Below are positions 9,156 through 23,880 of a DNA stretch of 64,000 nucleotides, piece by piece. Each line of letters starts with the position of its first letter. Position 1 is the stretch's first letter. The position numbers were made by a program, and so were the translations under genes. This stretch comes from Deltaproteobacteria bacterium (GTDB taxonomy: Bacteria; Desulfobacterota; GWC2-55-46; UBA9637; GWC2-42-11), in assembly GCA_016234925.1 (NCBI GenBank), contig JACRNI010000011.1, positions 2,666 to 66,665 on the forward strand, written 5' to 3'. A model generated the notes under the pieces. It searched no databases. It was not told the DNA's origin and saw only the letters and a program-made list of their open reading frames with translations.

Positions 9156-9183
9156 AGCATTCTCCCTTAAAATCTTTTCTGGA

Positions 9184-9411: not shown

Positions 9412-9570
9412 TAATACAAACGCATTAAATTCAGTTACATCATACGAACGCAAGAAATGGTTTTAGACAAGGCGGACGACGAGGAAAACCGCAGGCATAC
9501 TAATTGGTATGTTGAGGATTTTCCGAGGAGTCCAACGCAGTATAAAGACATTTATTGCGTTCGTATTAGA

Positions 9571-10728
9571 TTACCCTTTCATTGCCTCTATCAAAACCCT
9601 TGCAACCTCTGGTCTTGAAAACTCAACAGGCGGGATCTGTCCTGCCTTTAACATTTCCCTTACCTTTGTGCCGGATAAGGCAATATGGTGGCTGGAATCA
9701 TGCGGGCAGCTCTTGTAAGATGCCATGCTCTCGCATTTTTTGCAGTAGAATGTATGGTCAAAAAAGAGCGGTGTTATGCCGATTTCCTGAGGGTCAAACT
9801 CGTCAAATATATAATGAGCGTCAAATGAGCCGTAATAATTGCCGACCCCTGCATGGTCCCTGCCAACAATAAAATGCGTGCAGCCGTAGTTTTTTCTTAT
9901 GAGCGCATGGAATATCGCCTCTTTCGGGCCTGCATATCTCATTGCCGCTGGAAGCACAACAAGGGCAGTCCTGTCCTTTGGATAATAGTTTTCAAGCAAA
10001 ACTTCGTAACACTTCATCCTCACATCAGCAGGTATGTCATCGCCCTTTGTCTCGCCTACAATCGGATGGATCATAAGCCCGTCAACTACCTCCAATGCGC
10101 ATTTCTGAATGTATTCATGCGCCCTGTGTATCGGATTTCTTGTCTGAAAACCAACGACCCTTTTCCAGCCTTTTTCTTTGAAAAGATGCCTTGTCTCTTT
10201 AGGGTCAAGCCTGTATTTTTTAAAGTCCTCCTGCTTTACCCTGTGTATGACTGACACCTTGCCTCCAAGAAGCATGTCCCCCATTTCAAAAACCTTTGCA
10301 ACACCCGGATGCGCCGTGTCCTTTGTGCCGTAGACCTGAACAGCCTCTTTTTCTTTGTCATGGCTATGCTTTTCTTCAATGTGAAGAACTGCTAAAATCT
10401 CGCCCTGTTTATTGACAAGGCTTACTTCCTCGCCTTGTTTTAGATTCTTTGCCTCGTCTTTTGTAACTGATAAAGTAACTGGTATTGTCCAAGGAAGACC
10501 ATTTGACAGTTTCATATTGTCCATGACGTTGTGATAATCATCCTTTTTCATAAACCCTTCGAGAGGACTGAATGCGCCTATTGCAATCATCTCAAGGTCA
10601 GACACCTCTCTGTCATTGAGATGCACCTTCTTTAGTTTTTTTGTCTTTTCTAAAAGTGCTTCCCTTTCCTTTCCTTCCAAAATCCTGTTTACAAGTTTGC
10701 CGCCATGCGGCTCGATTAAACCTAGCAT
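9571..10728 (-). CDS. sat: Sulfate adenylyltransferase (ATP sulfurylase)
   Basis: 385 aa; [11 protein letters not shown] and GRDHAGVG motifs. Confidence 0.9.
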
Positions 10729-10759
10729 TATTTATGCCTCCTTTTTTGAATACAGGTAG

Positions 10760-10813
10760 AGGTATAGGTAAAGTAAAAGATATTTTCCTCTACCTATACC
10801 TGTTTTACTTATG
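10760..10813. repeat. Word-hairpin intercistronic element (arms built of GGTAGAGGTATAGGTA words around an A/T loop)
   Basis: ACAGGTAGAGGTATAGGTA ... CCTCTACCTATACCTGT imperfect inverted repeat between sat and cysH. Confidence 0.5.
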
Positions 10814-11521
10814 TATCCCGCACTCCTTCTTTTCATCCTCTTTATTAAACCACCGCCACCTGCCTGAGCGGGGCGGTTCGCCTTTAACAAGAGGCGTTGA
10901 GCATATTATGCAGCCGATAGAGTCATAGCCCATATCAAAGAGTTTATTATACGGCAAATCATTTTCCTTTATATATTGCCAGATTTTTGCCATATCCCAG
11001 TCAGCAAGAGGATTTATTTTTAAGATTTTTCTGTTTTCTTCATCAATAATCTCTGCCTTTGGAACAGTTTTTCTATAATCTGACTGGTCTCTTCTAAGTC
11101 CTGTTATCCAAACATCAAGTGTTTTGAGCGCGCGTTTATTCGGTTCAACCTTTCTAACAAAACAGCAGTATTCCTGCTTTGCCTTGTCCATAAAAAAGAG
11201 ATACTCGCCGAATCTTTCAATCATATTCTTTAATGCGTTCTCATCAGGAAAATATCTTTCAACAGTCAAAACATATTTTTCTTCTGTATTATTGATTGCC
11301 TCATATGTCTCTGGATGAAGGCGAAGCGTGTCAATTGTAAAGCCCCTGAACTTTTTTGCACACCTGCTGGCAATATCAATAATCACAGTCCCTGTTAATT
11401 GAAAACTTGTGCCTATCGCGCACCTTTCACCAAACTCATCAAATGCCCATTTAATGAGTTCTTCTGCAGGCATTGCATTTAATTTTTTAAGTGTATCTTT
11501 TGTAATATCTTCAATCTTCAT
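10805..11521 (-). CDS. cysH: Assimilatory APS/PAPS reductase, Fe-S type (CysH family)
   Basis: 238 aa; PAPS-reductase fold plus cysteine pairs EYCCFVRKV and C-terminal KECGIH typical of 4Fe-4S APS reductases. Confidence 0.85.
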   Translation of the reverse strand: MKIEDITKDTLKKLNAMPAEELIKWAFDEFGERCAIGTSFQLTGTVIIDIASRCAKKFRGFTIDTLRLHPETYEAINNTEEKYVLTVERYFPDENALKNMIERFGEYLFFMDKAKQEYCCFVRKVEPNKRALKTLDVWITGLRRDQSDYRKTVPKAEIIDEENRKILKINPLADWDMAKIWQYIKENDLPYNKLFDMGYDSIGCIICSTPLVKGEPPRSGRWRWFNKEDEKKECGIHK

Positions 11522-11527
11522 AGTTAA

Positions 11528-12640
11528 TTATATTTCAATCCCCGATACTGCCGATACTGCTGACACTACCATGTTTCTGCCTCTGCTCTTGCCCAGATAC
11601 AAAGCCTTATCCGCATAATCAATAAGTTTGATTGCAGATTTGGCGTCATCGGGCCATGTGGCAACGCCGATAGTAACTGACACCATTCCACTCGGCTGAT
11701 TCTCTCCGCCCTTGTATTTGCTGCCCTCTACAGCCTTTCTGAGTTTTTCAGCAACCACTACTGCCCTATTATTGGGTGTCTCAGGAAGAAGACAGATAAA
11801 CTCCTCTCCGCCGTAGCGGGCGACAACATCCGCTGTCCTTAATTTATCAATCAATAGTTTTGCCGTCTGTTTAATCGCATCATCGCCCAACAAGTGGCCA
11901 TTCTTGTCATTGAAGTTTTTAAAGTGGTCAATATCTATCATAAGAACAGAAAAATGTTTTTTGTACCGCTTTGCCCTTGATAATTCCTTTTCAATGTAAT
12001 CAAAAAAGTATCTGCGGTTGTACATGCCTGTCAACTCGTCCCGCATGGATATATCTCTGGCATTTTTATAGATATATGCCTTCTCAACTGCTATTGCTAT
12101 CTGCTGCGCCACCTCTGTAAAAAATTTTACATCATTCTCATTAAATGAGTTTGGCTGCGCCTTGTGTATATTAAAAACACCGAGGATATTCCCATGCTTG
12201 CCAACCAATGGGACGCAAAGAAATGCGCCGATATTTGTCGCAGCGCCCTTATAAAACATGGACTTGGGTTCTTTGCTTACATCCTGCACCAGAACAGGCT
12301 TGCCTGTCTTTGCTGCCATGCCTGATATTCCCTCGCCTATTTTAAGGCATATGCACGGCAATACAACAGGGTCCGGATACCATGCCCTTACTACAAGTTC
12401 ATTGGATGTTTCATCCAGCAGCATAATGCAGAATTCATCAATACGAAGAGACTTGCCAATAGTGTCTATGGTTCCATTGAATATCTCTTCTATGCCGATG
12501 CTTAAATTAAGCACCTTGCTGATGTTGTAAAGCGAATAGATTTCTAAGACCCTGGCATCAAGTTCATTATTCAGCCTTTCCAACTCATCCCTTTCAGATT
12601 TGAGCCTTTCAAGTTCTTTAGCAATATCTTTCGCAGCCAT
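11528..12640 (-). CDS. GAF-domain diguanylate cyclase (GGDEF)
   Basis: 370 aa; N-terminal coiled coil, GAF-like region, and a GGDEF domain with RYGGEEF active-site motif. Confidence 0.85.
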   Translation of the reverse strand: MAAKDIAKELERLKSERDELERLNNELDARVLEIYSLYNISKVLNLSIGIEEIFNGTIDTIGKSLRIDEFCIMLLDETSNELVVRAWYPDPVVLPCICLKIGEGISGMAAKTGKPVLVQDVSKEPKSMFYKGAATNIGAFLCVPLVGKHGNILGVFNIHKAQPNSFNENDVKFFTEVAQQIAIAVEKAYIYKNARDISMRDELTGMYNRRYFFDYIEKELSRAKRYKKHFSVLMIDIDHFKNFNDKNGHLLGDDAIKQTAKLLIDKLRTADVVARYGGEEFICLLPETPNNRAVVVAEKLRKAVEGSKYKGGENQPSGMVSVTIGVATWPDDAKSAIKLIDYADKALYLGKSRGRNMVVSAVSAVSGIEI

Positions 12641-12648
12641 TATTACCT

Positions 12649-13260
12649 CTAAAACTTCACATATTCCTTTTTCTCAAGATAACTAATTATAGTCCTTGTT
12701 GACTCTTCAATTGACATCTTTGATGTATCAATTGTCAGTTCAGGGTTCAAAGGCTCTTCATACGGCGCTGATATGCCTGTGAATTCCTTGACCTCTCCAA
12801 GTCTTGCCTTTTTGTAAAGCCCTTTTGTATCCCTCTGTTCACAGACCTCTATCGGACACTTTACATACACCTCTATAAATTCGCCTTGTTTTTGAAGTTT
12901 TCTTGCATTATCTCTATCAGCCATGTATGGCGATATGAATGCTGTTATTGTGATGATATTTGCATCTGTAAATAGTTTTGCAACCTCGCCGATTCTGCGG
13001 ATATTTTCAGACCTATCCTCTGGCGAGAAGCCCAGATTCTTATTCAAGCCATGACGAATATTATCGCCGTCCAATATATATGCCTGATGTTTGTTTTCTA
13101 ACAAGGCATGTTCCAGTTCAACAGCAATGGTTGATTTTCCTGAGCCTGAAAGCCCTGTGAGCCATATTGTCACACCTTTCTGCTTCATCAACTTTATCCT
13201 GTCCTCTTTTGTAATCTTCCCATGATGCCATTTTATGTTTGTAGATTTTTGATTAGTCAT
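12649..13260 (-). CDS. cysC: Adenylylsulfate (APS) kinase
   Basis: 203 aa; P-loop [11 protein letters not shown] and [16 protein letters not shown] motif. Confidence 0.9.
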
Positions 13261-13302
13261 TCATCCCCCTTTTTAATTTCATTTCACTCACAAGTTTGCA
13301 CA

Positions 13303-13502
13303 GTTCACGCTCAAAAATTGCCCAGATGCAAGGCGGAGCAAGGTTTCAAGCGAGGCATACTTTTGTAGTATGTTGAGCGAAGAAGCCGCAGCGACAACAT
13401 GCACAGCGAGCGTTAGCGAGCGAATAGTAATGCATTATCCCTTACATGAGAGCATCCCGCAGGGATGCTCAACGCCGCAGATGGGCATTTTTCAGCGTGA
13501 AC
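13303..13502 (+). repeat. MITE-like family 1 copy
   Basis: Terminal inverted repeats GTTCACGCTCAAAAAT / ATTTTTCAGCGTGAAC; conserved core GTATGTTGAGCGAAGAAGCCGCAGCGACAAC. Confidence 0.7.
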
Positions 13503-13505
13503 ATC

Positions 13506-13994
13506 TTATTCCTCAAACACCTCAATCTTGCAAGATGCCCTTTCAACCAGTTCATCAACTATTGATTTTGAAAAATATTTTAAAAATACTGAACGTTTTC
13601 TTTTTATTGCCACTGCTGTATCAATCTTGTATCTTTCAATCACATCAAGAGACTTTTCAACAAAATCGCCCTGTGTTGTAACTGCGTCAAAATCAACATT
13701 CTCTTCCATTGCCCTGATTTGAACCTTGCCCATCTCCTCATAGCCGCGCTGCCGATACTCCTTCATTATAGCCTCTGTGAGTTGGGTTGAAGGCTTGTCG
13801 CCGATAAAACCTATGTCTGTAAATTTATCAAAAATCTCCTGAGTAAGTTCAGTCTCAATTATATAAAGGACAACGAGTTTTGCCTTTTCCTTTTTTGCAA
13901 GATTAACAGCATATTCAATTGCATCCTGCGATGTCCTTGATGTTGACAAAATTAAAAGTATATTTTTCATATCTTTATCCCCAAAATAGGCCAA
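13506..13994 (-). CDS. Universal stress protein-like (adenine nucleotide alpha-hydrolase fold)
   Basis: 162 aa; alternating hydrophobic beta-strand pattern NILLILSTS...KLVVLYII typical of UspA, but weak. Confidence 0.45.
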   Translation of the reverse strand: MAYFGDKDMKNILLILSTSRTSQDAIEYAVNLAKKEKAKLVVLYIIETELTQEIFDKFTDIGFIGDKPSTQLTEAIMKEYRQRGYEEMGKVQIRAMEENVDFDAVTTQGDFVEKSLDVIERYKIDTAVAIKRKRSVFLKYFSKSIVDELVERASCKIEVFEE

Positions 13995-15394
13995 TAAACT
14001 TTAGCCATAATATTGAAAACTATCCATGCGGTTATCATCATCACAATCCCTGCCTTTGCCATATCTCTTGCTGTAATATATCCAGATGAAACTGCTATTG
14101 CATTTGCAGGCGTTGACATTGGAAAACAAAATGCCAGACCTGCCGGAATTGCTATGGCATATGTAATAATCTGCGGGTCAAGATTAAATCTGCCTGCCAT
14201 GCCTATGCTGACAGGAAGCAAAATTGCTATAACAGCGGCATTGCTCATCCCCTCTGTTAAAAGGATTGTTAAAAGGGAAAATACCGCTATAACAAGAACA
14301 GGGCTGTTTGCCCAATCACCAATCACTGTATTTGCAAGCCATGCTGCTGCGCCTGATTTTTCCATTGCCGCGCCTAACGTTATAGCGCCGCCATACATAA
14401 GTATTATGCCCCAGTTGACATATTCCTCTATGTCTTTCCATCGGACAAGTTTTAATACGAATAATGCAACAACTGCGATGATTGCAATATTTGCAATACC
14501 TGCCATTCTGCTAAACAAAAGCCATGAAGATATGGTTATGAGCATCAAAATGCCGACAGCATATTCAGTATAACCCATCTTGCCAAGCCCTTTTATCTTT
14601 CTTGCAAACACATCTTTTGCAAGATGTATGTCCTGTATATCCTGCGGAAAAAATCTTGTAAGGCCGATGTAGCCTATAAAAAGCAGAATTACTACTGTTG
14701 GAAACACAACCATTGTGTATTCAAAAAAACCAATGGTTATACCTGTCGCCTCCTTGAGCATGCCAGCAGCAAGCGGAACCCTTGCGCCGCCCAAAAATGT
14801 CGCAACACCTCCGATTACACAGCCCCATGCAAGCGCGAGAAAAAGCGACTTTGCATAGTTTGACTTACCGGGTTTCAGATTCAAGCCCTTTGCAATCTCA
14901 AGCACTATCGGGAAAAGCATTGCGGCAACTGCATGTTCTGACATAAAAAACGACAAAACCGCTGCAAGTAAAAATATTGACGCAAGAAGTCCCTTCGGCG
15001 TATTCCCAAACCTATCCATTATTAGAACTGCAATCCGGCTCGCCAATCCTGAATGCATAACAGCAGCAGAAAGTATGAATGCGCCGAGTATAAAAAATAC
15101 TGCCTCATTTCCAAAGAGCGCATATGCCGCCTTTTTATCCATAACACCCAATAAAGGCACCATCACAATCGCCATAAGGCTTGTAATTGCAAGAGGCAGG
15201 GCATCTGTTACCCAGAGTATAAGACATACAACAAAAAGCGCCAATGCCCTCTGCCCTTGAATTGTAAGCCCGGAAGGTGTAGGGATATTTATGAGATACC
15301 AGAATATAAAACCAAGGGCTAAAAAAAATATGGGTCTTAATGACCTTACTAAAACTATTACCCAAATTGGTCTTCTGTCTATGATTACCTTCAT
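13967..15394 (-). CDS. Anion permease of the ArsB/NhaD/DASS superfamily, putative sulfate/anion transporter
   Basis: 475 aa, about 12-14 predicted TM helices, internal duplicated halves; sulfate-assimilation context. Confidence 0.6.
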   Translation of the reverse strand: MKVIIDRRPIWVIVLVRSLRPIFFLALGFIFWYLINIPTPSGLTIQGQRALALFVVCLILWVTDALPLAITSLMAIVMVPLLGVMDKKAAYALFGNEAVFFILGAFILSAAVMHSGLASRIAVLIMDRFGNTPKGLLASIFLLAAVLSFFMSEHAVAAMLFPIVLEIAKGLNLKPGKSNYAKSLFLALAWGCVIGGVATFLGGARVPLAAGMLKEATGITIGFFEYTMVVFPTVVILLFIGYIGLTRFFPQDIQDIHLAKDVFARKIKGLGKMGYTEYAVGILMLITISSWLLFSRMAGIANIAIIAVVALFVLKLVRWKDIEEYVNWGIILMYGGAITLGAAMEKSGAAAWLANTVIGDWANSPVLVIAVFSLLTILLTEGMSNAAVIAILLPVSIGMAGRFNLDPQIITYAIAIPAGLAFCFPMSTPANAIAVSSGYITARDMAKAGIVMMITAWIVFNIMAKVYWPILGIKI

Positions 15395-15397
15395 AAA

Positions 15398-16621
15398 TTA
15401 TCCCTCACCTACCTCCCTGACCCTCAATTTCCTCCGCAAAGTAGAAAGCCCCCAAACTGTCTTCAGTCCAAGTTTTGACTTGTAAAACTTATGCATCATT
15501 GTTTTGAATCTTGACATATCCCCTGTAAAAAACATCGCCTCAATGGGCGTTGTTATAACGCTGATGTCTCTCACCCAGTTCATGTTTATCCTGTTCTTTT
15601 TAACAGCATGATATAGATGCTTGTAAACAGGGGCAATCTCATCAAGAGAAGGTATTTTATATGAAAGAAGTTTCACGCTGCTCACGGGTCTATAAATCGG
15701 AAGTATAGGCACAACGCCAAGGTCTGTAAGAAAATCTATCCCCCTCATTGTTGATTCTGCCGGCTCAAGCCCGACAATAAGATTAGATGCGACAGTGCCG
15801 TTTGGAAAAACCTTTGCAGCATATTTAAGCGCATTTATATATCTGTTTCTGCCAATCAGTTCATCCCTCCCCGGGCATATCTCCTTAAAAAGTTTTTCAT
15901 CAAATATCTCCATATTGTAAAGCACAGAATCAGCGCCAACCGCATATGTTTCGTCTATAAACTTGTTCTCCTTTGGCGGAAGCGCCTCAACAGCAACAAT
16001 GGTGTTAAAATGTTTCTTGATTGCCTTTATATAAGGCTTTAAAAATTCTATGCCGCCGTCAGGCGTTTCTGAAAAACCAATTGAAAGATAGACAATCTCT
16101 GCCTTGCCTTCTTTGTATGCAGCCTCAACAGTTTCAAGAACCTCCTCAACACTATAAACTACACCGCCCTTTGAATTAAAATTCCCTGCACAGTATCTGC
16201 ACTCTATATTCATGTTGAAAAACTCGCACCTTGTGTCAGGCGTGATTGCAACATAACTGCCGTGCATATTGCCGATTTTTGAAAGCGGAATGCCTGTCGT
16301 TGTTTTCAGTTTATAAAAATCAGGTTTTGGTATGATTTTGACCTTAACAGATTCCCCCTCTCTTTTTATGAATGCCTTTCCATCTTTCTGGATAAGTTCA
16401 TAAGGAGAATTCTTTGCAAAATCCTCAAGAAAAGGCGCATTTACCCATGTCTTATAAGGCAATATTATGTCAAGCCCGCCTGTAATGCCTGTATAGCCTG
16501 TAGAAAGGTCTATGCCCAGACTCTTAACAGCGTTTTCATTAAGCCTTATACCGCAAAGCATAAGGTCTATCTTTAAATAACCGGGGTTGTGGAGATATGT
16601 CTTTGTTTTTTTCATAAACAA
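15398..16621 (-). CDS. Radical-SAM-like TIM-barrel protein with non-canonical Cys triad (C-x8-C-x2-C), function unknown
   Basis: 407 aa; CEFFNMNIECRYCAG in place of CxxxCxxC, followed by a radical-SAM-like downstream pattern (GKAEIVYLSIGFSETPDGG ... ASNLIVGLEPAES). Start abuts the ThiF stop (16621/16622). Confidence 0.55.
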   Translation of the reverse strand: MFMKKTKTYLHNPGYLKIDLMLCGIRLNENAVKSLGIDLSTGYTGITGGLDIILPYKTWVNAPFLEDFAKNSPYELIQKDGKAFIKREGESVKVKIIPKPDFYKLKTTTGIPLSKIGNMHGSYVAITPDTRCEFFNMNIECRYCAGNFNSKGGVVYSVEEVLETVEAAYKEGKAEIVYLSIGFSETPDGGIEFLKPYIKAIKKHFNTIVAVEALPPKENKFIDETYAVGADSVLYNMEIFDEKLFKEICPGRDELIGRNRYINALKYAAKVFPNGTVASNLIVGLEPAESTMRGIDFLTDLGVVPILPIYRPVSSVKLLSYKIPSLDEIAPVYKHLYHAVKKNRINMNWVRDISVITTPIEAMFFTGDMSRFKTMMHKFYKSKLGLKTVWGLSTLRRKLRVREVGEG

Positions 16622-17443
16622 TCATGTGCTGCATTTTGCAGCCTGTATCTCGCAAGCCTGCTCATACATAACCAAATCCTTTACTGTCGGATTATCTCCG
16701 CATAATGCACACTGGGTATCCCTTCTTACCTTTACTTTCCTGAATGTCATGGCAAGCGCATCAAATATAAGAAGATGTCCTGCGAGTTCATCACCTATTT
16801 TTAGAATCTGTTTTATTGCTTCTACTGCCTGAATAACGCCGATTACACCAGCGAGCGCTCCTAAAACACCTGCCTCCTGACAACTTGGCACAAGCCCTTT
16901 TGGAGGAGGCTCTGGATAAAGGCATCTGTAGCAGGGCTTTCCTTCATGCGGCTTGAATATTGTCACCTGTCCGTCAAACCTGAACATACTGCCTGACACA
17001 AGGGTCTTTTTTTCAAAAAAACATGCATCATTCATTAAATACCGCGTTGGAAAATTATCGCTGCCGTCAAGGATAACATCATAGTCTCTTATAATCTTTC
17101 TTATATTATCAATGCCAAGACGCTCGTTATAGACAATAACCTTGACATCAGGATTCAAGCCTTCAATAGATTTTTTAGCAGATTCTACCTTTGGCATCCC
17201 AATCTTTTCAGTAGAGTGAATTATCTGCCTTTGAAGGTTAGATAAGTCAACACAGTCAGCATCGGCAATGCCGATTGTGCCTATACCTGCAGCAGCAAGA
17301 TAATAAAGCGCCGGCGAACCAAGCCCGCCTGCGCCAAGCACAAACACCTTTGCGTCTAATAATTTAGCCTGACCCTTGCCGCCGACCTCAGGAAGAATTA
17401 TATGCCTTGAATATCGCTCTATTTGTTCTTCTGTAAAGTTCAT
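16622..17443 (-). CDS. ThiF/MoeB/MoeZ-type E1-like sulfur-carrier adenylyltransferase
   Basis: 273 aa; nucleotide-binding VLGAGGLGSPALYYLAAAGIGTIGIAD and zinc CxxC pairs CYRC ... CALC. Confidence 0.85.
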   Translation of the reverse strand: MNFTEEQIERYSRHIILPEVGGKGQAKLLDAKVFVLGAGGLGSPALYYLAAAGIGTIGIADADCVDLSNLQRQIIHSTEKIGMPKVESAKKSIEGLNPDVKVIVYNERLGIDNIRKIIRDYDVILDGSDNFPTRYLMNDACFFEKKTLVSGSMFRFDGQVTIFKPHEGKPCYRCLYPEPPPKGLVPSCQEAGVLGALAGVIGVIQAVEAIKQILKIGDELAGHLLIFDALAMTFRKVKVRRDTQCALCGDNPTVKDLVMYEQACEIQAAKCST

Positions 17444-17453
17444 AATTTAAATA

Positions 17454-17546
17454 CAGTTAAGGAGTTTAAGAGTTGTGGAGTTGAGGGATTTTTTTATTTT
17501 TAAGTTTTTAACTCCTAAACTCTTGAACTCTTCAACTCTTAAACTG
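17454..17546. repeat. Word-hairpin element (ACAGTTAAGGAGTT words), 3' flank of JAMM gene
   Basis: AATACAGTTAAGGAGTTTAAGAGTTGTGGAGTTGAGGG-ATTTTTTTATTTTT-AACTCCTAAACTCTTGAACTCTTCAACTCTTAAACTGTTTCT. Confidence 0.55.
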
Positions 17547-17946
17547 TTTCTATTTCCTCTTCCCTAAACGGCTCTCCTTCATTTTCAAATGTCCATGACT
17601 TCACTGAAACATCTTTTCCATTTTGCACAGCGACAATCACATATGAATAAAACGGCCATGCCCTTTGCCTGTCAAAATCAGATGGTCTGTCAGGATGGTC
17701 AGGATGGGAATGAAAAAAACCAATCACCTCAAAACCATCTTTTTTCGCCTCTTTTTCAACCCTTAATAAATCCTTTGGGTTTATCTCATACCTGTCATTC
17801 GCCCTTTCTTTATTTATATTCTCCAGAGGATAAATCTTTGTAATCTTTTTGTCCTTGCCAACCAATGCGCCGCAGCCCTCGCAAGGGTAGGATTTTTTTG
17901 CATGGCTGATGATTTCGTTGTAAATTTTCTGTGATAGATGTAACAT
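17539..17946 (-). CDS. JAMM/MPN+ metalloprotease (Mec+/CysO-cleaving-type)
   Basis: 135 aa; JAMM motif FHSHPDHPDRPSDFD (HxHx7SxxD) and upstream EGCG. Confidence 0.8.
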   Translation of the reverse strand: MLHLSQKIYNEIISHAKKSYPCEGCGALVGKDKKITKIYPLENINKERANDRYEINPKDLLRVEKEAKKDGFEVIGFFHSHPDHPDRPSDFDRQRAWPFYSYVIVAVQNGKDVSVKSWTFENEGEPFREEEIETV

Positions 17947-17953
17947 AAGAAAA

Positions 17954-18056
17954 TACAGTTAAAGAGTTCAGGAGTTCGAGAGTTAAGGAGTTAAAAAATA
18001 AAACTGTTTTTTACTCCTCAACTGTATTTGTATTTACTCCATAACTCCTGAACTGT
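17954..18056. repeat. Word-hairpin element, paralog of 17454-17546, 5' flank of JAMM gene
   Basis: AATACAGTTAAAGAGTTCAGGAGTTCGAGAGTTAAGGAGTT-AAAAAATAAAA-...ACTCCATAACTCCTGAACTGTTTCT; same termini as the other copy. Confidence 0.55.
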
Positions 18057-18060
18057 TTCT

Positions 18061-19059
18061 CTACTCCCACAACACAGTTGACAGATACCTGTCCCCGCCG
18101 TCAGGGAATATAACAACAATTACACCCTCTTCTAATTCCTTTGCAGCCTGAAGCGCACCCCACATTGCAGCGCCTGACGACTGCCCCACAAAAAGCCCTT
18201 CCTCCATTGCAAGCCTCTTTGCCATATCATATGATTCCTCTGTTGGCGCAGAAATCTTTTTATCAAGTTTATCTTCATGATATATGCCCGGGACAATGGA
18301 TGAAGGCATATGTTTTAAACCCTCAAGCCCATGCAGCGCTGTTGCTGGCTCAACTGCAATGATCTGTATGTCCGGATTGAACTCCTTTAATCTCCTGCCT
18401 GTTCCCATTATTGTCCCGCCTGTTCCTATGCCTGCGACAAGATGTGTTATCCTGCCGTCTGTCTGCTCTATAATCTCCACCCCTGTTGTGTCGTAATGCG
18501 CCTGCGGATTTGATGGATTATTATACTGGTCAAGTTTGCAGTATTTATCAGGACTGTCAACATACATCTTCCATGCAAGCCTTATTGCGCCGTCAGAGCC
18601 TTCCATTGGATTTGAATAAACCGTGTTTGCGCCGAAAGCCTTTAAAATCTTTTTTCTTTCATTGCTGACATTTTGCGGAACAACAAGTTCAACCTGATAA
18701 CCCTTAACAGCGCCAATCCATGCATATGCAATGCCTGTGTTGCCGGATGTTGAGTCAAGTATAATCTTGTCCTTTGTAAGCCTTCCTGCCTCTTCTGCAT
18801 CCTTTATCATCTTTAGCGCTGCTCTATCTTTAACAGAGCCTCCCGGATTATAAGATTCAATCTTCGCATAAATCTCGACACCTTTGCTTAAACCCTGTGC
18901 AATCCTATTTATTTTAACCAGAGGGGTATTGCCTACAAGTTCCAAAACAGAGGTCTTTGGCAATTTATAACCCCAGTTTATGATTTGTTTTAGATTATTC
19001 ATATTAAACCTTTCCGAGTAATGTAGTATATATCTTTGCTCCAAAAATGGTAGCCGCAA
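18061..19059 (-). CDS. cysM: Cysteine synthase B-like PLP enzyme (CysM-type, likely sulfur-carrier dependent)
   Basis: 332 aa; PLP lysine region GSVKDRAAL, glycine loop [20 protein letters not shown] as called probably starts too far upstream. Confidence 0.8.
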   Translation of the reverse strand: MRLPFLEQRYILHYSERFNMNNLKQIINWGYKLPKTSVLELVGNTPLVKINRIAQGLSKGVEIYAKIESYNPGGSVKDRAALKMIKDAEEAGRLTKDKIILDSTSGNTGIAYAWIGAVKGYQVELVVPQNVSNERKKILKAFGANTVYSNPMEGSDGAIRLAWKMYVDSPDKYCKLDQYNNPSNPQAHYDTTGVEIIEQTDGRITHLVAGIGTGGTIMGTGRRLKEFNPDIQIIAVEPATALHGLEGLKHMPSSIVPGIYHEDKLDKKISAPTEESYDMAKRLAMEEGLFVGQSSGAAMWGALQAAKELEEGVIVVIFPDGGDRYLSTVLWE

Positions 19060-19102
19060 CCTTTAGGTTGCGTTACCTACGCAGGCTAAAACCTGCGGCT
19101 AC
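19050..19102. repeat. REP-like two-hairpin element (GTAGCCG outer stem enclosing two hairpins)
   Basis: GTAGCCGCAACCTTTAGGTTGCGTTACCTACGCAGGCTAAAACCTGCGGCTAC; overlaps and supplies the last codons of cysK. Confidence 0.65.
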
Positions 19103-20011
19103 CGAATTTTCATGCACCCTTTCGCATGTATCAGGCAAAATAACCACAATAAGTTTCCCTTTGGAATCAGTTCTTTTTGCAATATCCAGCGCAGCAAAAA
19201 CTGCTGCGCCTGATGATATACCGCAGAGAATGCCCTCTTCCTTTATCATCCTTTTTGTCATATTTAATGCATCCTCATCTGAAACCTGCATCACCTCATC
19301 TATAATAGATATATTAAGTATTTGAGGCACAAATCCAGCGCCTATGCCGGAAATCTTATGCGCCCCTGCCTGACCGCCTGAAAGAACAGGAGATTTTTTT
19401 GGTTCAACTGCAATCGCCTTAAAACACGGCTTTCTCTTTTTAATAACCTCTCCAATACCTGTGATTGTGCCTCCTGTTCCAATACCTGCCACCAAAATAT
19501 CAACCTTTCCGTCAGTATCATTCCAGATTTCCTCTGCTGTAGTCCTTTTGTGAATATCAGGATTTGCAGGATTCTTAAACTGCTGAGGTATATATGAATT
19601 TGAAACCTTTTTTGAAATTTCCTCTGCCTTCAAAATAGCGCCCTTCATGCCTTCTGACGCAGGTGTCAAAACAACCTCTGCGCCAAACATCTTAAGAAGA
19701 GAGAGCCTTTCAATGTCAACAGTTTCAGGCATTGTAAGAATCAACTTATAACCTCTTGCAGCGCAAACAAATGCAAGCGCAATGCCTGTATTTCCTGATG
19801 TCGGCTCAATAATCGTTGTATTATTATTTATTAACCCTGCCCTCTCGCCTGCCTCAATCATACTTACAGCAATCCTGTCTTTGACGCTGTTTAAAGGATT
19901 AAATGACTCCAGTTTTGCGGCAACCTCCGCCTTTATACCCTTTGTCACCCTGTTCAATCTGACAAGCGGTGTATTGCCTATTGTCTCTGTGATGTCGTTA
20001 AATATCCGCAT
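19073..20011 (-). CDS. cysK: Cysteine synthase A (O-acetylserine sulfhydrylase)
   Basis: 312 aa; SVKDRIA PLP-lysine motif, [17 protein letters not shown]-terminal 13 residues are encoded by the REP-like element. Confidence 0.85.
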
Positions 20012-20018
20012 CTGAAAA

Positions 20019-20100
20019 TAGGGTTCAAGGATTCTAGTGGTCTAGGGTTCGAGTGAAAAAATAAACACTTGAACCCTTGAATCCTCTACCCCTTGACTCC
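20019..20100. repeat. Word-hairpin element (GGTTCAAGG words) between NIL gene and cysK
   Basis: GGGTTCAAGGATTCTAGTGGTCTAGGGTTCGAGTG-AAAAAATAAACA-CTTGAACCCTTGAATCCTCTACCCCTTGACTCC. Confidence 0.5.
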
Positions 20101-20227
20101 TTAAAATCACTACAACTATCCTGATAACAAACCATATTTCTATAATACTTTATCTAATATATCAACAAATACCCAACGCCTGCAAATATTTCTTTACAAT
20201 AAAGATAAAGAAATATTTCAAAAAATT

Positions 20228-20464
20228 TTATTCTATTATATCAAGTTCAATAGGCTCTACCTTTACGCCTTTTTCAATAAAATAATTTATTGCCTTTTCT
20301 ATTTCCTGTGGTTCTCCGTCCAGTTCAAGCGCAACAAGACCAATGCTTTCGGAAACAGTCGCCTGTCTTATGTTTGTTACAACCTTATACAGTTTTCCAG
20401 CCTGATAAATAAGCGGCTCTTTTATCAATTCTTTTGGAAATGTAAGGTAAAATCTCTTTTTCAA
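20228..20464 (-). CDS. Small NIL-domain-like protein (MetO/MA1822-like ferredoxin-fold partner of sulfur-carrier pathways)
   Basis: 78 aa; pattern LTFP...EPLIYQ...LVALELDGEPQEIEKAINYFIEKGVKVEPI resembles NIL domains. Starts at a TTG overlapping the carrier stop (ATGTTTTGA). Confidence 0.4.
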   Translation of the reverse strand: MKKRFYLTFPKELIKEPLIYQAGKLYKVVTNIRQATVSESIGLVALELDGEPQEIEKAINYFIEKGVKVEPIELDIIE

Positions 20465-20742
20465 AACATCCCTCCGGCAATTGCAGGGATGATTGAAATC
20501 TCATCCCCATCCTTTAATTCTGTATCAATGCTGTTTTTAAACCTTATGTCCTCATCATTGACATAGATGTTCACAAAGCGTCTTATCTTGCCGTCATCTT
20601 CACAAATCCTTTCTTTAAGACCGGGGTATTGTTTTTCAATATCATTTATAAGGTCTTTAATATTTTTACCCCCTCCTTCTACTTCATCCTTGCCATTCGT
20701 AAGTTTCCTGAGCGGTGTTGGAATTCTGACTTTAATTGCCAT
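20461..20742 (-). CDS. ThiS/MoaD/CysO-like sulfur carrier with C-terminal GG followed by a 2-residue extension (…AIAGG-MF)
   Basis: 93 aa; beta-grasp-like pattern and terminal IIPAIAGGMF. The extension implies a need for proteolytic exposure of the GG, with the JAMM protease nearby. Confidence 0.65.
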   Translation of the reverse strand: MAIKVRIPTPLRKLTNGKDEVEGGGKNIKDLINDIEKQYPGLKERICEDDGKIRRFVNIYVNDEDIRFKNSIDTELKDGDEISIIPAIAGGMF

Positions 20743-20810
20743 TGTTGCCCTCCGTCAATATTAGTTTCACATTGAAAGTCTTGTCTATTACATCTTACAT
20801 TTCTCACATC

Positions 20811-21062
20811 TTACCGTTTTTCTATCTTCAACCTAAAATGATCGCCTTCTTTTTTGACCTCAACAATCTTATGTCCTTCTTCCTTGATGCTCTTTGGGAC
20901 ATTCTGAATCGGCTCGCCGTCATCTATAACAATCTCTAACACCTGACCTTTTTCCATCATCTCCAACTGCAATTTTGTTTTAACAAAATTTATAGGACAT
21001 AGAACATTTCTTAAATCAAGTGATTTGTCAGCCTTAATATCCATTTCATTTTGCTCCTGCAA
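20811..21062 (-). CDS. TusA/SirA-like sulfurtransferase
   Basis: 83 aa; LDLRNVLCPINF resembles the TusA CPxP motif region; overlaps sulfite reductase stop. Confidence 0.6.
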   Translation of the reverse strand: MQEQNEMDIKADKSLDLRNVLCPINFVKTKLQLEMMEKGQVLEIVIDDGEPIQNVPKSIKEEGHKIVEVKKEGDHFRLKIEKR

Positions 21063-22002
21063 CTATCTCGCCGCTCTTAAATGCGCCTGTCATAAACTTC
21101 ATATAACTTTCAACGCCAACCCTGTCAATGGTTGAACCAATCCTCTCGCCCCTTTTGCCATTCTCTTTATACCATTCAATGGTCTTTTGTATGACATCTG
21201 ACACCTTATCATCAGGAATAAATACCGCCGCCTCATTTGCCTCTCTCGGATGTCTGCCGTGCTTGCCGCCTACCCTTACAAAATGCCCGTATCTCTTTGC
21301 CTTCCATGACTCTGTCGGGCACGCCCTTATGCAGTCCCCGCAGTATATGCACTTTTCTGCATCATATATCGGTTTGCCTGTCTCCTGATGAGATACAATA
21401 GCGCCTTCTTTGCAAGCCCTTGAGCATATTGTGCATCCTGTGCATGTGTCCTCATCCCATATCGGCTCAACAACGCCCTGAAAACCCAAATCAGCCTCAC
21501 GGGTCCTTGCGCAGTCAATCGGACAGCCTGAAAATGACATCTTAAACTTATGATGCGTTGGAGTGCCGAAGAATTTTTCATCAACCATCTCTGCCATCTT
21601 CTGCGTATCTGTAAGACCATTTGGATTATATTCGCACCCGCCGCATGCAGTGGGCACCCTCACCCTTGGCCCGCATGACGCAACCTTGTGGTCAACCTTT
21701 GCCAAATCCGAGGTCAGATTATCAAAGTCCTTGTAATCAACATACAGAATCTCCAATGACTGCCTGAAACTTAAATGAACAACCCCTTTTTTGCTGTATT
21801 TATCAGCAATCTTCGCAAGTTCAATGAGTTTTTTTGTTGTGAGCCTTCCGCCGGGACAGCGCAGCCTTACTGTAAATAAATCCTTTTGCCTCTGCTTTAT
21901 AAAACCGCCGGACTTTAGCTCATTAAAGTCAACCTTAACCTCCTGTCCCTCTTTTTTAACAGGCACACGGGTTATCTTATCCTCTATAAAATGGTCAGCC
22001 AT
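21046..22002 (-). CDS. Small siroheme-[4Fe-4S] sulfite reductase with embedded 2x[4Fe-4S] ferredoxin domain (AsrC/assimilatory low-MW type)
   Basis: 318 aa; nitrite/sulfite reductase cysteines (ACGGCEYN, SFSGCPIDCA) plus ferredoxin motifs CTGCTICSRAC and CIYCGDCIRACP. Confidence 0.7.
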   Translation of the reverse strand: MADHFIEDKITRVPVKKEGQEVKVDFNELKSGGFIKQRQKDLFTVRLRCPGGRLTTKKLIELAKIADKYSKKGVVHLSFRQSLEILYVDYKDFDNLTSDLAKVDHKVASCGPRVRVPTACGGCEYNPNGLTDTQKMAEMVDEKFFGTPTHHKFKMSFSGCPIDCARTREADLGFQGVVEPIWDEDTCTGCTICSRACKEGAIVSHQETGKPIYDAEKCIYCGDCIRACPTESWKAKRYGHFVRVGGKHGRHPREANEAAVFIPDDKVSDVIQKTIEWYKENGKRGERIGSTIDRVGVESYMKFMTGAFKSGEIVAGAK

Positions 22003-22059
22003 TCATTATCTCCTGTTTGCCAGTAGCCTACTATATCTCAAAACTCTTTTTCAAGGTTT

Positions 22060-23313
22060 TTATGCCTTCACAGCATAGACCTTGCCTTCTTTTGCCACAA
22101 GTTCATCAAATTCAGCAAGCCTTGCATTGATTGTTCTTGGCGCCCCAATCCTTCCAACAAGCGCCTCCTGTGTCTTTAACCCATTGCCTGTTATAGACAC
22201 AACTATTGACTCATCTTTTGGTATCCTTCCCTGCTCAATCAATTTCTTTGCAACGGCTAAAGTTACACCGCCTGCTGTTTCAGCGAATATACCTTCTGTC
22301 TCAGCCAGAAGTTTCATTGCATCAATAATCTCTTCATCAGACACATCCTCGCCCCATCCGTTGCTCTCCCTCATAACCTTTGCTGAATAAAACCCGTCCG
22401 CAGGGTTTCCTATTGCAAGGGACTTTGCAATGGTCTTTGGCTTTACAGGCTTTATAAGTTCTGTGCCTTCTTTAACCGCTGTGGTAATAGGCGAGCAGCC
22501 TGTTGCCTGCGCGCCGTATACCTTTGTATTTAAACTGTCAACAAGCCCGAGTTTATGAAACTCCTTGAATGACTTCCAGATTTTTGTGATAAGCGAACCC
22601 CCTGCCATAGGCACAACAATATGTTTTGGAAGTTTCCACCCTAACTGCTCTGCAATCTCGTAGCCAAACGCCTTTGACCCCTCTGCATAGTAAGGTCTTA
22701 TATTTATATTAACAAATGCCCATCCGTATTTGCCTGCAATCTCGCTGCACAAACGGTTGACCTCATCATAATTTCCCTTTATTGCAATGACATTTGTGCC
22801 GTAAACAAGCGTCCCCATTACCTTTGTCTGCTCAAGGTCATGCGGGATAAAAACATAACTTTCCATGCCGCAGGCAGCGGCATTTGCAGCAACTGAATTC
22901 GCAAGGTTTCCTGTTGACGCGCATGCAACGATCTTGAAATCAAACTCTATTGCCTTTGATATTGCGACAGCAACAACCCTGTCTTTGAAAGAAAGCGTCG
23001 GATAATTAACAGCATCATTTTTTAAATACAATTCTTGGACGCCCAAAACCTTTTCAAGATTCTTTGCCCTTACAAGCGGTGTAAACCCGACATCCAAGCC
23101 AACCTTCGGTTCGCCGTCGATTGGAAGGAGTTCCTTGTATCTCCACATATTCGGCGGTCTTTTTGATATGATGTCTCTTGTTAAAGATTTCTTGATTTTT
23201 TCATAATCATAATTGACCTCAAGGGGACCAAAGCAATACTCGCACACATGGAGAGCCTCTTTTGGATACTCCTTGCCGCATTCCCTGCATTTAAGACCTT
23301 TTACATAACTCAT
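22060..23313 (-). CDS. thrC: Threonine synthase family PLP enzyme. Annotated by homology as ThrC, but placed behind a SAM riboswitch in a sulfur operon, so it may be a MetM-like homocysteine synthase.
   Basis: 417 aa; N-terminal Zn-ribbon CRECG...CEYC, PLP lysine FKDR, long ThrC-type fold. Confidence 0.75.
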   Translation of the reverse strand: MSYVKGLKCRECGKEYPKEALHVCEYCFGPLEVNYDYEKIKKSLTRDIISKRPPNMWRYKELLPIDGEPKVGLDVGFTPLVRAKNLEKVLGVQELYLKNDAVNYPTLSFKDRVVAVAISKAIEFDFKIVACASTGNLANSVAANAAACGMESYVFIPHDLEQTKVMGTLVYGTNVIAIKGNYDEVNRLCSEIAGKYGWAFVNINIRPYYAEGSKAFGYEIAEQLGWKLPKHIVVPMAGGSLITKIWKSFKEFHKLGLVDSLNTKVYGAQATGCSPITTAVKEGTELIKPVKPKTIAKSLAIGNPADGFYSAKVMRESNGWGEDVSDEEIIDAMKLLAETEGIFAETAGGVTLAVAKKLIEQGRIPKDESIVVSITGNGLKTQEALVGRIGAPRTINARLAEFDELVAKEGKVYAVKA

Positions 23314-23343
23314 ATTTTCACCTCTGTAACGGCTTTGTAAAAA

Positions 23344-23395
23344 GTAGCCGCAACCTTTAGGTTGCGTTATTTCGCAGGCTAAAGCCTGCGGCTAC
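23344..23395. repeat. REP-like two-hairpin element in the 5' leader of the thrC-like gene
   Basis: GTAGCCGCAACCTTTAGGTTGCGTTATTTCGCAGGCTAAAGCCTGCGGCTAC. Confidence 0.65.
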
Positions 23396-23428
23396 CTACT
23401 TTGCCGTTTTTATAGACTTTTATTTGCA

Positions 23429-23470
23429 ATAAAAAAGCCCCTTCTTGAAATTAAGAAGAGGCTTTTATTT
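23429..23470 (-). terminator. Rho-independent terminator/attenuator (expression platform of the SAM riboswitch)
   Basis: Minus-strand AAAAGCCTCTTCTTAATTTCAAGAAGGGGCTTTTTT: GC-rich stem followed by a U-tract, between riboswitch and start codon. Confidence 0.65.
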
Positions 23471-23475
23471 CCTAA

Positions 23476-23596
23476 TCTTATCTTTCAAGGCTTAAACTAA
23501 AAAACCTTGATGGAGTTAGCACCTAGTCATCCTGCATTTGCAGGATCGGTTGCTGTGGTTTCACAGGGCCATTCCCTCCGCCACTCTGGATAAGCA
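23476..23596 (-). promoter_or_regulatory. SAM-I (S-box) riboswitch
   Basis: Minus-strand CUUAUCCAGAGUGGCGGAGGGAAUGGCCCUGUGAAACCACAGCAACC ... GGUGCUAACUCC ... GAAAGAUAAG matches the S-box consensus (CUUAUCaAGAG-GG-GGAGGGA-GGCCC-UGAA-CC-GCAACC, GGUGCcAAuuCC, P1 closing AGAUAAG). Confidence 0.85.
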
Positions 23597-23747
23597 ATAT
23601 CCATATTAAATTGTTGTAATATTTATAATATGAACAAATGTGCGTTGTCAAGGATAAATTTAATACTTATACACTGCCTTGACAATCAATCCCTTTTGTC
23701 ATACCCTTTTTAACATTAAAAGCTTGTTGAAAAACTCAACAATCTCT

Positions 23748-23830: not shown

Positions 23831-23880
23831 AAGGCTGTTGATGACTTTTTTAACAGCCTGTTAGAACAAGAGGCAATTTA

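Follow-up and report, generated by a model that had tools for sequence, protein, structure and literature searches.

A gene cluster conserved among uncultured deltaproteobacteria that probably links sulfate assimilation to cysteine and homocysteine synthesis through a ubiquitin-like sulfur carrier

Introduction

Most genome annotation still misses or misannotates the thiocarboxylate-dependent synthesis of cysteine and methionine. The locus analysed here raises the question of whether sixteen neighboring genes in the window (the whole 64,000-nucleotide stretch of DNA that was analysed) form a system of this kind, which of them belong to it, and how they are transcribed. A preliminary description had read them as one uninterrupted run leading from sulfate to cysteine and methionine, built around a sulfur carrier, a JAMM protease and an E1 enzyme. 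We conclude that the array is a genuine gene cluster conserved among uncultured deltaproteobacteria, and that its predicted products would convert sulfate into cysteine and homocysteine via a ubiquitin-like sulfur carrier.

Results

Gene content and conservation of the array

The ORF calls place 16 co-directional ORFs, all on the minus strand, at positions 9571-23313 (Table 1), and the label proposed earlier for each of them agrees with its Pfam and NCBIfam domains. The comparison with relatives suggested in the preliminary description was carried out on genomes that are uncultured MAGs throughout, and it found the locus conserved. Dozens of species-level genomes, about 35 in all, keep the gene order, down to 52% identity of the radical-SAM-fold (rSAM) protein, and the array is therefore more than a chance juxtaposition.

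Many gene junctions in the array overlap or span less than 15 nt, and repeat elements fill the larger intergenic gaps of the window. The gap between the Usp and CysC genes, which holds a MITE-like insertion in the window, is 14 nt in one relative (L001), and a REP-like repeat, with four copies in the window against none expected, supplies the last codons and the stop of cysK. Two genes that had been counted as parts of the system are not conserved among the related loci and are lineage-specific passengers or additions: cysK, which is limited to the window, L049, L071 and L074, and the gene for the c-di-GMP cyclase (GAF-GGDEF), which the window shares with L001/L006 and L070 alone. The NIL-domain protein and the non-canonical rSAM protein, which had likewise been singled out, are conserved, and we found no description of them in such a context in the literature.

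Table 1. Features of the array, in transcription order
Feature	Coordinates	Strand	Basis
SAM-I riboswitch aptamer	23475..23596	-	RF00162, 80.1 bits (gathering score 44.4)
Riboswitch expression-platform terminator, hairpin and T6	23430..23465 (approx.)	-	sequence reading; RNAfold -16.4 kcal/mol, TTTTTT after hairpin
REP-like double-hairpin repeat in leader, then T5	23344..23395	-	inverted repeat I6; terminator-like in hairpin test
ThrC-like PLP enzyme, N-terminal 4-Cys (Zn) ribbon; proposed MetM-type homocysteine synthase	22060..23313	-	PALP, 248 bits
Small siroheme-type sulfite reductase (Sir), inserted ferredoxin domain (Fsr C-terminal-half type)	21046..22002	-	NIR_SIR, NIR_SIR_ferr, Fer4 domains
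TusA/SirA-family sulfur relay protein	20811..21062	-	PF01206, 76.5 bits
CysO/MetO-like ThiS-fold sulfur carrier, end PAIAGG-MF	20461..20742	-	ThiS, 67 bits
Stand-alone NIL-domain protein	20228..20464	-	PF09383, 52 bits
CysK, O-acetylserine sulfhydrylase A type; accessory	19073..20011	-	TIGR01139, 445 bits
REP-like double hairpin and T5, 3' end of cysK	19047..19103	-	inverted repeat I5
CysM-type cysteine synthase, conserved PLP enzyme upstream of JAB	18061..19002	-	TIGR01138, 390 bits
JAMM/MPN+ metalloprotease, Mec+/HcyD-like	17539..17946	-	Prok-JAB, 93 bits
ThiF/MoeB-type E1 adenylyltransferase without rhodanese domain	16622..17443	-	ThiF, 274 bits
Variant radical-SAM-fold protein, invariant Cx8Cx2C motif	15398..16621	-	Radical_SAM; NCBIfam variant_rSAM NF045502
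DASS-family anion symporter, presumed sulfate uptake	13967..15394	-	Na_sulph_symp, 208 bits; TIGR00785, 265 bits
Usp-domain protein overlapping DASS stop	13506..13994	-	PF00582, 47 bits
MITE-like 200-nt insertion, terminal inverted repeats, Usp-CysC gap	13303..13502	-	inverted repeat I8
APS kinase CysC	12649..13260	-	PF01583, 240 bits
GAF-GGDEF diguanylate cyclase, GGEEF and RxxD intact; lineage-specific insertion	11528..12640	-	domain matches and sequence
CysH-family (P)APS reductase, CC...CxxC and ECGIH motifs	10805..11521	-	PF01507, 146 bits; NF002537, 232 bits
ATP sulfurylase Sat	9571..10728	-	PF01747, 338 bits; NF003166, 602 bits

The 5' module

The match of the riboswitch family RF00162 covers model positions 1-108 of 108 on the same strand as the ThrC-like gene and upstream of it, and its score, above the gathering threshold, confirms the SAM-I riboswitch proposed for the head of the array. 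The ThrC-like gene behind the riboswitch probably encodes a homocysteine synthase of the MetM type, an identity that the preliminary description had missed. In the relatives, the ThrC-like protein shows 74-86% identity.

The best solved relatives of the sulfite reductase are residues 333-609 of F420-dependent sulfite reductase (Fsr; E=1.7e-36), and 35 loci keep its ACGGC...SGCPxDC cysteines. The CX3C pair is conserved, whereas the first pair reads CGGC (CX2C) in place of the CX5C of Fsr, a variant that is invariant in 33 of the 35 orthologues. TusA likely starts at 21044 (a corrected gene call), and the cysteine in its CP(I/T/M)NF motif is conserved in all 37 loci.

The carrier reads ...PAIAGG-MF at its end, as had been stated, and aligns end to end with CysO of Mycobacterium tuberculosis (3dwg_C, 83 bits, E=1e-22; 4n6e_B, 90 bits). 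In 47 loci the PAIAGG with its GG is invariant, and the tail of 0-6 amino acids that comes after it is variable and not conserved, which is what a propeptide destined for removal would be expected to show. Based on this pattern and on the intact motif of the JAMM protease (E...HSHPDHPDRPSDFD, in agreement with E, HxH-x7-S-xx-D, and conserved in 56 loci), we propose that the MF tail is a putative substrate for removal by the JAMM protease. The spacing between the ThiS-like carrier gene and the NIL gene has a median of -4 nt (43 loci), and the NIL protein is predicted to be translationally coupled to the carrier; one MAG (L049) contains an in-frame ThiS-NIL fusion. The NIL protein, as a conserved accessory protein, may be a partner of the carrier or a methionine sensor.

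The 3' module

One CysO/MetO-like carrier accompanies both CysM and the MetM-like enzyme. CysM, which likely starts at the ATG at 19002 to give 313 aa (a corrected gene call), is 70-86% identical in every locus reaching that position. Its best solved relatives are the enteric CysM enzymes of the O-acetylserine/thiosulfate type (2bht, 249 bits), and M. tuberculosis CysM, which is specific for O-phosphoserine and accepts the CysO thiocarboxylate, is absent from its 60 best matches among solved structures, so that its use of the carrier and its choice of substrate can only be inferred. The E1 (273 aa) reaches 344 bits against the MoeZ model NF005902, whose cut-off is 647, with only positions 15-278 of 392 matched; two CxxC pairs and the cysteine of SCQEAGVLG are conserved.

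The rSAM protein has both the radical-SAM TIM-barrel fold and the match to the family model NF045502; the motif C132-x8-C141-x2-C144 is invariant, and the canonical CX3CX2C cluster motif is absent from the protein. The E1 gene lies upstream of it in 60 of 61 loci and the DASS permease gene downstream in 68 of 69, a strict linkage for which we found no description in the literature. The Usp protein likely starts at the ATG at 13970, which overlaps the DASS stop in an ATGA (again a corrected call), and in 65 loci the median spacing between these two genes is -19 nt. The rSAM protein, also a conserved accessory protein, may help in loading sulfur onto the carrier. It should be noted that the roles proposed for NIL, rSAM, Usp and TusA are guesses.

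Discussion

A proposed pathway from sulfate to cysteine and homocysteine

We consider it likely that the locus connects assimilatory sulfate reduction with the synthesis of cysteine as well as homocysteine from a protein thiocarboxylate, a scheme in which every chemical step is modelled on characterised homologous systems; the CysO/Mec+/MoeZ and HcyS/HcyD/HcyF logic that the preliminary description saw in the locus appears to be right. The DASS permease would bring in sulfate, which Sat, CysC and CysH would convert to sulfite, and the small Fsr-C-like siroheme reductase would make sulfide. Trimming of the two-residue MF tail by the JAMM protease would expose the Gly-Gly of the carrier, which the rhodanese-less E1 would adenylate, and sulfur, either free HS- or relayed by TusA, would turn the adenylate into a C-terminal thiocarboxylate. 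This would be taken by CysM together with activated serine, and by the ThrC-like MetM-type enzyme together with O-phosphohomoserine; after an S-to-N acyl shift, the JAMM protease would free cysteine or homocysteine and regenerate the carrier. The SAM-I riboswitch would exert feedback control on at least the 5' module (ThrC-like, Sir, TusA, carrier and NIL).

A more tentative view, possible but doubtful in our judgement, is that the E1, the ThiS-like carrier, the Cx8Cx2C rSAM protein and the DASS permease (joined by Usp or a ferredoxin) constitute an unrecognised sulfur-mobilising module, in which the rSAM protein would either load sulfur on the adenylated carrier, replacing the rhodanese of MoeZ, or consume the thiocarboxylate. 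On this view the carrier would have the stand-alone NIL protein as its dedicated partner, as is suggested by their translational coupling and by the one natural fusion of the two, which a JAMM protease would have to cleave as if it were a ubiquitin-fusion precursor.

Alternative explanations

That unrelated sulfur genes merely lie next to one another is an explanation for which only the passenger genes (CysK and GGDEF) and the mobile repeats speak; it is already refuted by the synteny described above, and we give it practically no weight. Another objection is that the ThrC-like gene encodes an ordinary threonine synthase and that the carrier serves CysM alone. The protein passes the NCBIfam threonine-synthase equivalog NF006050 (314.7 bits; cut-off 303), and its best solved relatives are threonine synthases. 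However, a SAM riboswitch precedes the gene in the window and in all eight related loci tested, and the gene has a fixed place beside those for Sir, TusA and the carrier. In addition, the cultured actinomycete Nonomuraea contains a SAM riboswitch, a ThrC-like gene and a ThiS gene in that order, and the window protein is 53% identical to this ThrC-like protein as opposed to 35-39% to the products of annotated thrC genes. According to GapMind, MetM is often misannotated as threonine synthase, and we regard a genuine threonine synthase as very improbable here.

It is also conceivable, although quite unlikely, that the E1, carrier, rSAM and DASS proteins serve a separate pathway, in which the rSAM enzyme would draw on the carrier thiocarboxylate for thiolation of a DASS-imported substrate or another metabolite, and the synthesis of cysteine and methionine would merely share the carrier. 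This would agree with the distant MAGs L076 and L077, where the core ThiF-ThiS-rSAM-DASS (with a ferredoxin) lies by itself among housekeeping genes, with the sulfur-inserting LipA as the best structural match of the rSAM protein (BioB also scoring high), and with the fact that DASS proteins carry di- and tricarboxylates too, the one in the window also having a Pfam CitMHS match. As regards transcription, the uninterrupted run of the preliminary description holds for orientation only. The implied single 14-kb operon under the SAM riboswitch would fit the shared direction of all 16 genes, their many tight junctions, the inserted repeats that account for several larger gaps in the window, and the hairpin and T-run test, which gave no clear or classical terminator 3' of NIL in the window. 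In most relatives, however, a terminator-like hairpin lies 3' of NIL (28 of 41 loci, versus 7-44% for other gaps), the gap between NIL and CysM is at least 119 nt in every locus measured, and one clade has CysM to Sat alone, with neither the 5' module nor the riboswitch; in the window itself, a REP-like hairpin and T5 follow cysK. Since hairpins of this kind follow NIL in so many relatives, at least two transcription units are suggested rather than one, the 3' module (CysM to Sat) probably being separate or merely partly read through, and we regard the single operon as unlikely.

Implications

Judging from this locus, an entire uncultured lineage of groundwater and sediment may supply both amino-acid branches from a single carrier, with sulfate reduction feeding directly into it, and this bears on how auxotrophy and metabolism are predicted for these MAGs. 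The NCBIfam equivalog model would name the MetM-like gene threonine synthase, and the NCBI name for the NIL protein is 'FeS-binding protein'. Two conserved genes, those for the Cx8Cx2C rSAM-fold and NIL proteins, gain a sharply defined genomic context, and an Fe-S enzyme that forms or uses protein thiocarboxylates would, if true, be new chemistry.

Comparison with known systems

Krishnamoorthy and Begley are said to have described, in 2011, the HcyS/HcyD/HcyF/MetY cluster of Wolinella succinogenes. This cluster is counted within the operon class '4e'. The latter was defined by Iyer, Burroughs and Aravind (2006; PMC1779556) and comprises a ThiS/MoaD carrier, a JAB protein, an E1 that is always without rhodanese, an invariably present SirA/TusA, and sulfate-assimilation genes; the novelty claimed earlier for the core (carrier, JAMM and E1 with sulfate activation and TusA) is therefore not upheld. 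The window likewise has the carrier, JAB and rhodanese-less E1 in one neighborhood, along with SirA/TusA, sulfite reductase, ATP sulfurylase, APS kinase, PAPS reductase and a sulfate transporter, and a C-terminal extension of the carrier beyond GG is common to both. However, homocysteine is formed there by the O-acetylhomoserine sulfhydrylase MetY, whereas the window has the ThrC-like, MetM-type enzyme, and the domain search found the MetY-type Cys_Met_Meta_PP domain in none of the 16 ORFs. The window adds CysM, has a DASS instead of an ABC transporter, and contains the NIL, Cx8Cx2C rSAM and Usp proteins as extras.

The MetM/MetO O-phosphohomoserine thiocarboxylate pathway of Streptomyces albulus (Hasebe et al. 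2024, AEM 90:e01247-24) has in common with the window a SAM riboswitch leading a ThrC homologue, a ThiS-like carrier, a Mec-type JAMM protein and an E1. The sequences compared are those of the equivalent Nonomuraea cassette and not of S. albulus, and the window carrier is 51% identical to its ThiS. In the window, Sir and TusA stand between the enzyme and the carrier, and the carrier appears to be common to CysM as well; the window E1 is without the rhodanese domain of MoeZ and the sulfate pathway lies in the same array. The CysO/CysM/Mec+/MoeZ pathway of M. tuberculosis resembles the window in its carrier, which ends in Gly-Gly and which the window carrier matches along its entire length, and in the adjacent CysM-JAB-E1 genes with an intact JAMM motif, but MoeZ carries a C-terminal rhodanese, which the window E1 does not, the window CysM is more like enteric CysM than like other solved relatives, and the window carrier has a tail. 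The rSAM protein shares the TIM-barrel fold and the three-cysteine CX8CX2C motif with the RadicalSAM.org Megaclusters 4-6-x and with NCBIfam NF045502 ('variant_rSAM'); the MSMEG_0568/Nit1C family is distant, being only ~25% identical to it. In summary, the core of the cluster is a known operon class, from which it differs in the carrier that lies beside both CysM and a MetM-like enzyme, in the coupled NIL gene, and in the Cx8Cx2C rSAM gene together with those for E1 and DASS, and three uncharacterised, tightly linked extra genes distinguish the present version from the cluster type described since 2006.

Gene content and conservation of the array

The array consists of 16 open reading frames (ORFs), all co-directional on the minus strand, which span positions 23313 to 9571 of the window, and every gene label given in the preliminary description was matched by Pfam and NCBIfam. 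The catalytic motif of the JAMM protease (JAB) is complete (E...HxH-x7-S-xx-D), the E1 keeps two CxxC pairs and the cysteine of SCQEAGVLG, the PLP lysines are present in the SFKDR and SVKDR motifs, and TusA keeps the cysteine of CPIN. Both the GGEEF motif and the RxxD site of the GGDEF protein are intact, as are the CC...CxxC and ECGIH motifs of CysH. Among solved structures, the small sulfite reductase (Sir) most closely resembles the C-terminal half of F420-dependent sulfite reductases; its residues 117-129 contain ACGGC (CX2C) in contrast to the CX5C of the siroheme-coupled cluster in those enzymes, and this variant is found in 33 of 35 orthologues. In the case of CysM, the nearest solved relatives are the enteric CysM enzymes.

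Features of the array, its surroundings and selected related loci (window coordinates unless a locus is named; genes numbered in transcription order)
Feature	Position	Strand	Remarks
SAM-I riboswitch	23475-23596	-	80.1 bits
1, ThrC-like PALP enzyme		-	N-terminal 4-Cys ribbon
2, sulfite reductase	21046-22002	-	NIR_SIR/ferredoxin type, 318 aa
3, TusA		-	probable start 21044
4, ThiS-fold carrier		-	C-terminus PAIAGG-MF
5, NIL protein		-	78 aa
6, CysK		-	
7, CysM		-	likely start ATG at 19002
8, Prok-JAB protease		-	
9, ThiF-type E1		-	273 aa
10, Radical_SAM protein		-	matches NCBIfam 'variant_rSAM' NF045502
11, DASS symporter		-	
12, Usp protein		-	probable start 13970, ATGA overlap with DASS stop
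13, APS kinase (CysC)		-	
14, GAF-GGDEF protein		-	
15, CysH		-	
16, Sat		-	
Deoxyhypusine-synthase-like and SLT transglycosylase genes	7510-8499, 8496-9155	-	region in L001: 16953-19707
REP-like copies	5756-5778, 27101-27123	+	
REP-like copies	19047-19103, 23344-23395	-	
MITE-like element	13303-13502	-	fills Usp-CysC gap
Ends related to MITE-like element	9384-9410, 36497-36523	-	
Long imperfect palindromes	17456-17545, 17951-18058, ~20030-20110	-	intergenic; GAGTT/AACTC-type heptamers
L049, carrier-NIL fusion	6204-6719		
L076, module	7860-13286		ThiF-ThiS-rSAM-DASS, 7Fe-type ferredoxin
L077, module	8060-12701		ThiF-ThiS-rSAM-DASS
L086, NZ_LT559118.1	11806217-11815434		riboswitch, ThrC-like, ThiS ending GG

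A scan with an alignment of the variant radical-SAM-fold protein (rSAM), using one genome per GTDB species, yielded 80 loci, all from uncultured Deltaproteobacteria or Thermodesulfobacteriota metagenome-assembled genomes (MAGs). When the 16 window proteins were compared with the related loci by tblastn, the order ThrC-like, Sir, TusA, ThiS, NIL, CysM, JAB, ThiF, rSAM, DASS, Usp, (CysC), CysH, Sat recurred in ~35 species-level genomes and persisted down to 52% rSAM identity; Pfam-labelled gene calls in three relatives concur. The locus is therefore not a chance juxtaposition confined to a single genome, an outcome that the preliminary description had considered.

Not all genes belong to this core. 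CysM is the PLP enzyme that related loci conserve upstream of JAB (70-86% identity); CysK, present in the window and three other loci only, is accessory. The GAF-GGDEF gene is restricted to the window and its nearest relatives, L001/L006 and L070, and CysC occurs in some sublineages only, its presence co-varying with the type of CysH. Among the related loci compared (L004, L014, L017, L018 and others), those with Usp-CysC carry the CysH type of the window (55-84% identity), and those that lack CysC have a CysH of just 34-43% identity. In a third group, a divergent Sat (~40%) precedes CysC (~50%), perhaps as a bifunctional enzyme. Past the 3' end of Sat, the window carries a deoxyhypusine-synthase-like gene; in relatives, genes for an arginase-fold protein and a pyruvoyl arginine decarboxylase come next, so that the region resembles a polyamine cluster. 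Only in the window does an SLT transglycosylase gene separate Sat from the deoxyhypusine-synthase-like gene.

Transcriptional organization

The SAM-I riboswitch, the sole Rfam family above its gathering score in the whole window, is followed by a strong hairpin and T6. A permissive Rfam scan of positions 9000-24000, aimed at an additional riboswitch, a T-box or a comparable element, returned only noise matches on intergenic hairpins. Among the relatives, the riboswitch was present in all eight tested loci having a ThrC-like gene at 74-86% identity. The spacer between NIL and CysM is at least 119 nt throughout the related loci (median 276) and contains a hairpin with a T-run in 28 of 41 relatives, textbook terminators among them, as compared with 7-44% of loci for other junctions. 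Moreover, one clade (L003, L007-L013) has CysM to Sat alone, and there the riboswitch is absent. Based on these terminators, the riboswitch-less clade and the association of the riboswitch with the ThrC-like gene, the array is best read as two modules: a SAM-controlled module A (ThrC-like, Sir, TusA, carrier and NIL) and a module B, which comprises CysM, JAB, E1, rSAM, DASS and Usp together with the genes for sulfate activation. The DASS and Usp reading frames of related loci overlap. In the window, the junction between the modules is taken up by the accessory cysK. As to read-through from A into B in this organism, the sequence is compatible with joined as well as separate modules.

The intergenic regions contain several repeated elements. 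A REP-like element of ~55 nt, a double hairpin (GGTAGCCGCAGGCTTTAGCCTGCG...AACGCAACCTAAAGGTTGCGGCTACC), has four copies in the window versus 0 expected. One supplies approximately the last nine codons and the stop of cysK, and another separates the riboswitch terminator from the start codon of the ThrC-like gene; each of these two is followed by T5 and is terminator-like. The Usp-CysC gap, which in L001, the closest relative, measures only 14 nt, is filled by a MITE-like element of ~200 nt bounded by terminal inverted repeats (GTTCACGCTGAAAAATGCCCA...TGGGCAATTTTTGAGCGTGAAC), and the other large intergenic gaps of the window are also inserted repeats. Finally, palindromes flanking JAB and preceding cysK, which gave spurious weak Rfam matches (snoRNA, let-7), may form hairpins that act in the processing or stability of RNA.

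The carrier and the proposed pathway

The carrier can be aligned over its full length with CysO of Mycobacterium tuberculosis. Across 47 loci, its C-terminus is an invariant PAIAGG, to which 0-6 residues, mostly two, are added without conserved sequence (KF, VS, AF, AA, RS, MA and others; a single locus stops at GG). An invariant GG with an unconserved tail is the pattern expected of a removed propeptide. The preliminary description had paired the GG-MF extension with the JAMM protease; both the tail and an intact JAMM motif are observed, and cleavage of the one by the other is what we infer from them. Roles of the carrier in thiamine synthesis, Moco synthesis or tRNA thiolation were considered and dropped, since the 16 ORFs contain no ThiG, MoaE or TtuA-type domain.

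By homology with characterized systems, on which every chemical step depends, the DASS permease would take up sulfate, Sat, CysC and CysH would convert it into sulfite, and the small reductase would turn sulfite into sulfide. The E1 would adenylate the trimmed carrier, and the adenylate would become a thiocarboxylate through sulfide or TusA-relayed sulfur. CysM and the ThrC-like enzyme would use this thiocarboxylate to form carrier-bound Cys and Hcy, which the JAMM protease would then free.

The rSAM and NIL proteins

Of 61 loci, 60 have ThiF as the immediate upstream neighbour of rSAM; the immediate downstream neighbour is DASS in 68 of 69. Where rSAM identity falls to 39-46%, in distant MAGs, only ThiF-ThiS-rSAM-DASS is left of the array; two such high-GC modules, L076 and L077 (isolate named 'MYXO'), are flanked by housekeeping genes (RluD-like, Der GTPase), and JAB, CysM and ThrC-like are absent from both, selected frames having been scanned in L077. 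For L083, a further distant locus of high GC content, annotation likewise covered selected frames. The near-obligatory placement of rSAM between a rhodanese-less E1 and a DASS permease, together with the stand-alone module and the ferredoxin that follows it in L076, leads us to hypothesize a role for rSAM in forming or using the thiocarboxylate. A literature search for CX8CX2C radical SAM enzymes yielded only the megaclusters listed in RadicalSAM.org without assigned function, and searching a plasmid collection with rSAM gave only MSMEG_0568/Nit1C-type relatives (~25% identity), which are uninformative on function.

The ThiS and NIL reading frames share 4 nt (median of 43 loci). In L049, they form one reading frame (...PAIAGG-AIETRKVYLTYP...), known from one MAG in which an assembly error is possible; the arrangement is ubiquitin-fusion-like. 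The C-terminal NIL domain of MetN binds methionine. MA1822 of the DUF39 route is an NIL/ferredoxin protein, and beyond MA1822 and MetN no homocysteine-related NIL precedent was found in the literature. That an rSAM-dependent module loads or uses the carrier, with NIL as its partner, is a tentative and rather doubtful proposal.

Relation to described systems

In the cultured actinomycete Nonomuraea gerenzanensis, a SAM-I riboswitch precedes a ThrC-like gene, which is followed by ThiS; identity to the window is 53% (ThrC-like) and 51% (carrier), in comparison with 35-39% between annotated thrC genes and the ThrC-like gene of the window. These genes probably constitute a metM-metO cassette, the layout being that reported for Streptomyces metM-metO; the MetM/MetO route is included in GapMind 2026. 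It should be noted that the N. gerenzanensis record, of 11.85 Mb and nearly without annotation, is classed as a plasmid in PLSDB.

The preliminary description, whose interpretation is supported in part, regarded the fusion of carrier, JAMM and E1 with sulfate genes as undescribed. This does not hold for the core: class 4e of Iyer, Burroughs and Aravind 2006 (PMC1779556), known from Wolinella, Geobacter, several Firmicutes and others, joins ThiS/MoaD, JAB and E1 with sulfate-assimilation genes (sulfite reductase, ATP sulfurylase, APS kinase, PAPS reductase and a sulfate transporter); SirA/TusA is never missing, and its E1 always lacks rhodanese. Later biochemical work on the Wolinella member is reported to have shown that it makes homocysteine via the HcyS thiocarboxylate. 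With class 4e catalogued and the MetM/MetO route known, the locus is a variant of a described class. It differs from class 4e in having a MetM-type enzyme in place of the MetY-type, an additional CysM, a DASS instead of an ABC transporter, and three conserved accessory genes (NIL, rSAM and Usp). Support for an undescribed fusion is limited to the added NIL and rSAM/DASS/Usp genes and to what looks like the use of a single carrier by both CysM and the ThrC-like enzyme. Its E1 does not conform to the rhodanese-type MoeZ of M. tuberculosis, nor its homocysteine branch to the MetY of Wolinella; hence, the locus belongs strictly to neither model system, and by analogy it would work like both.
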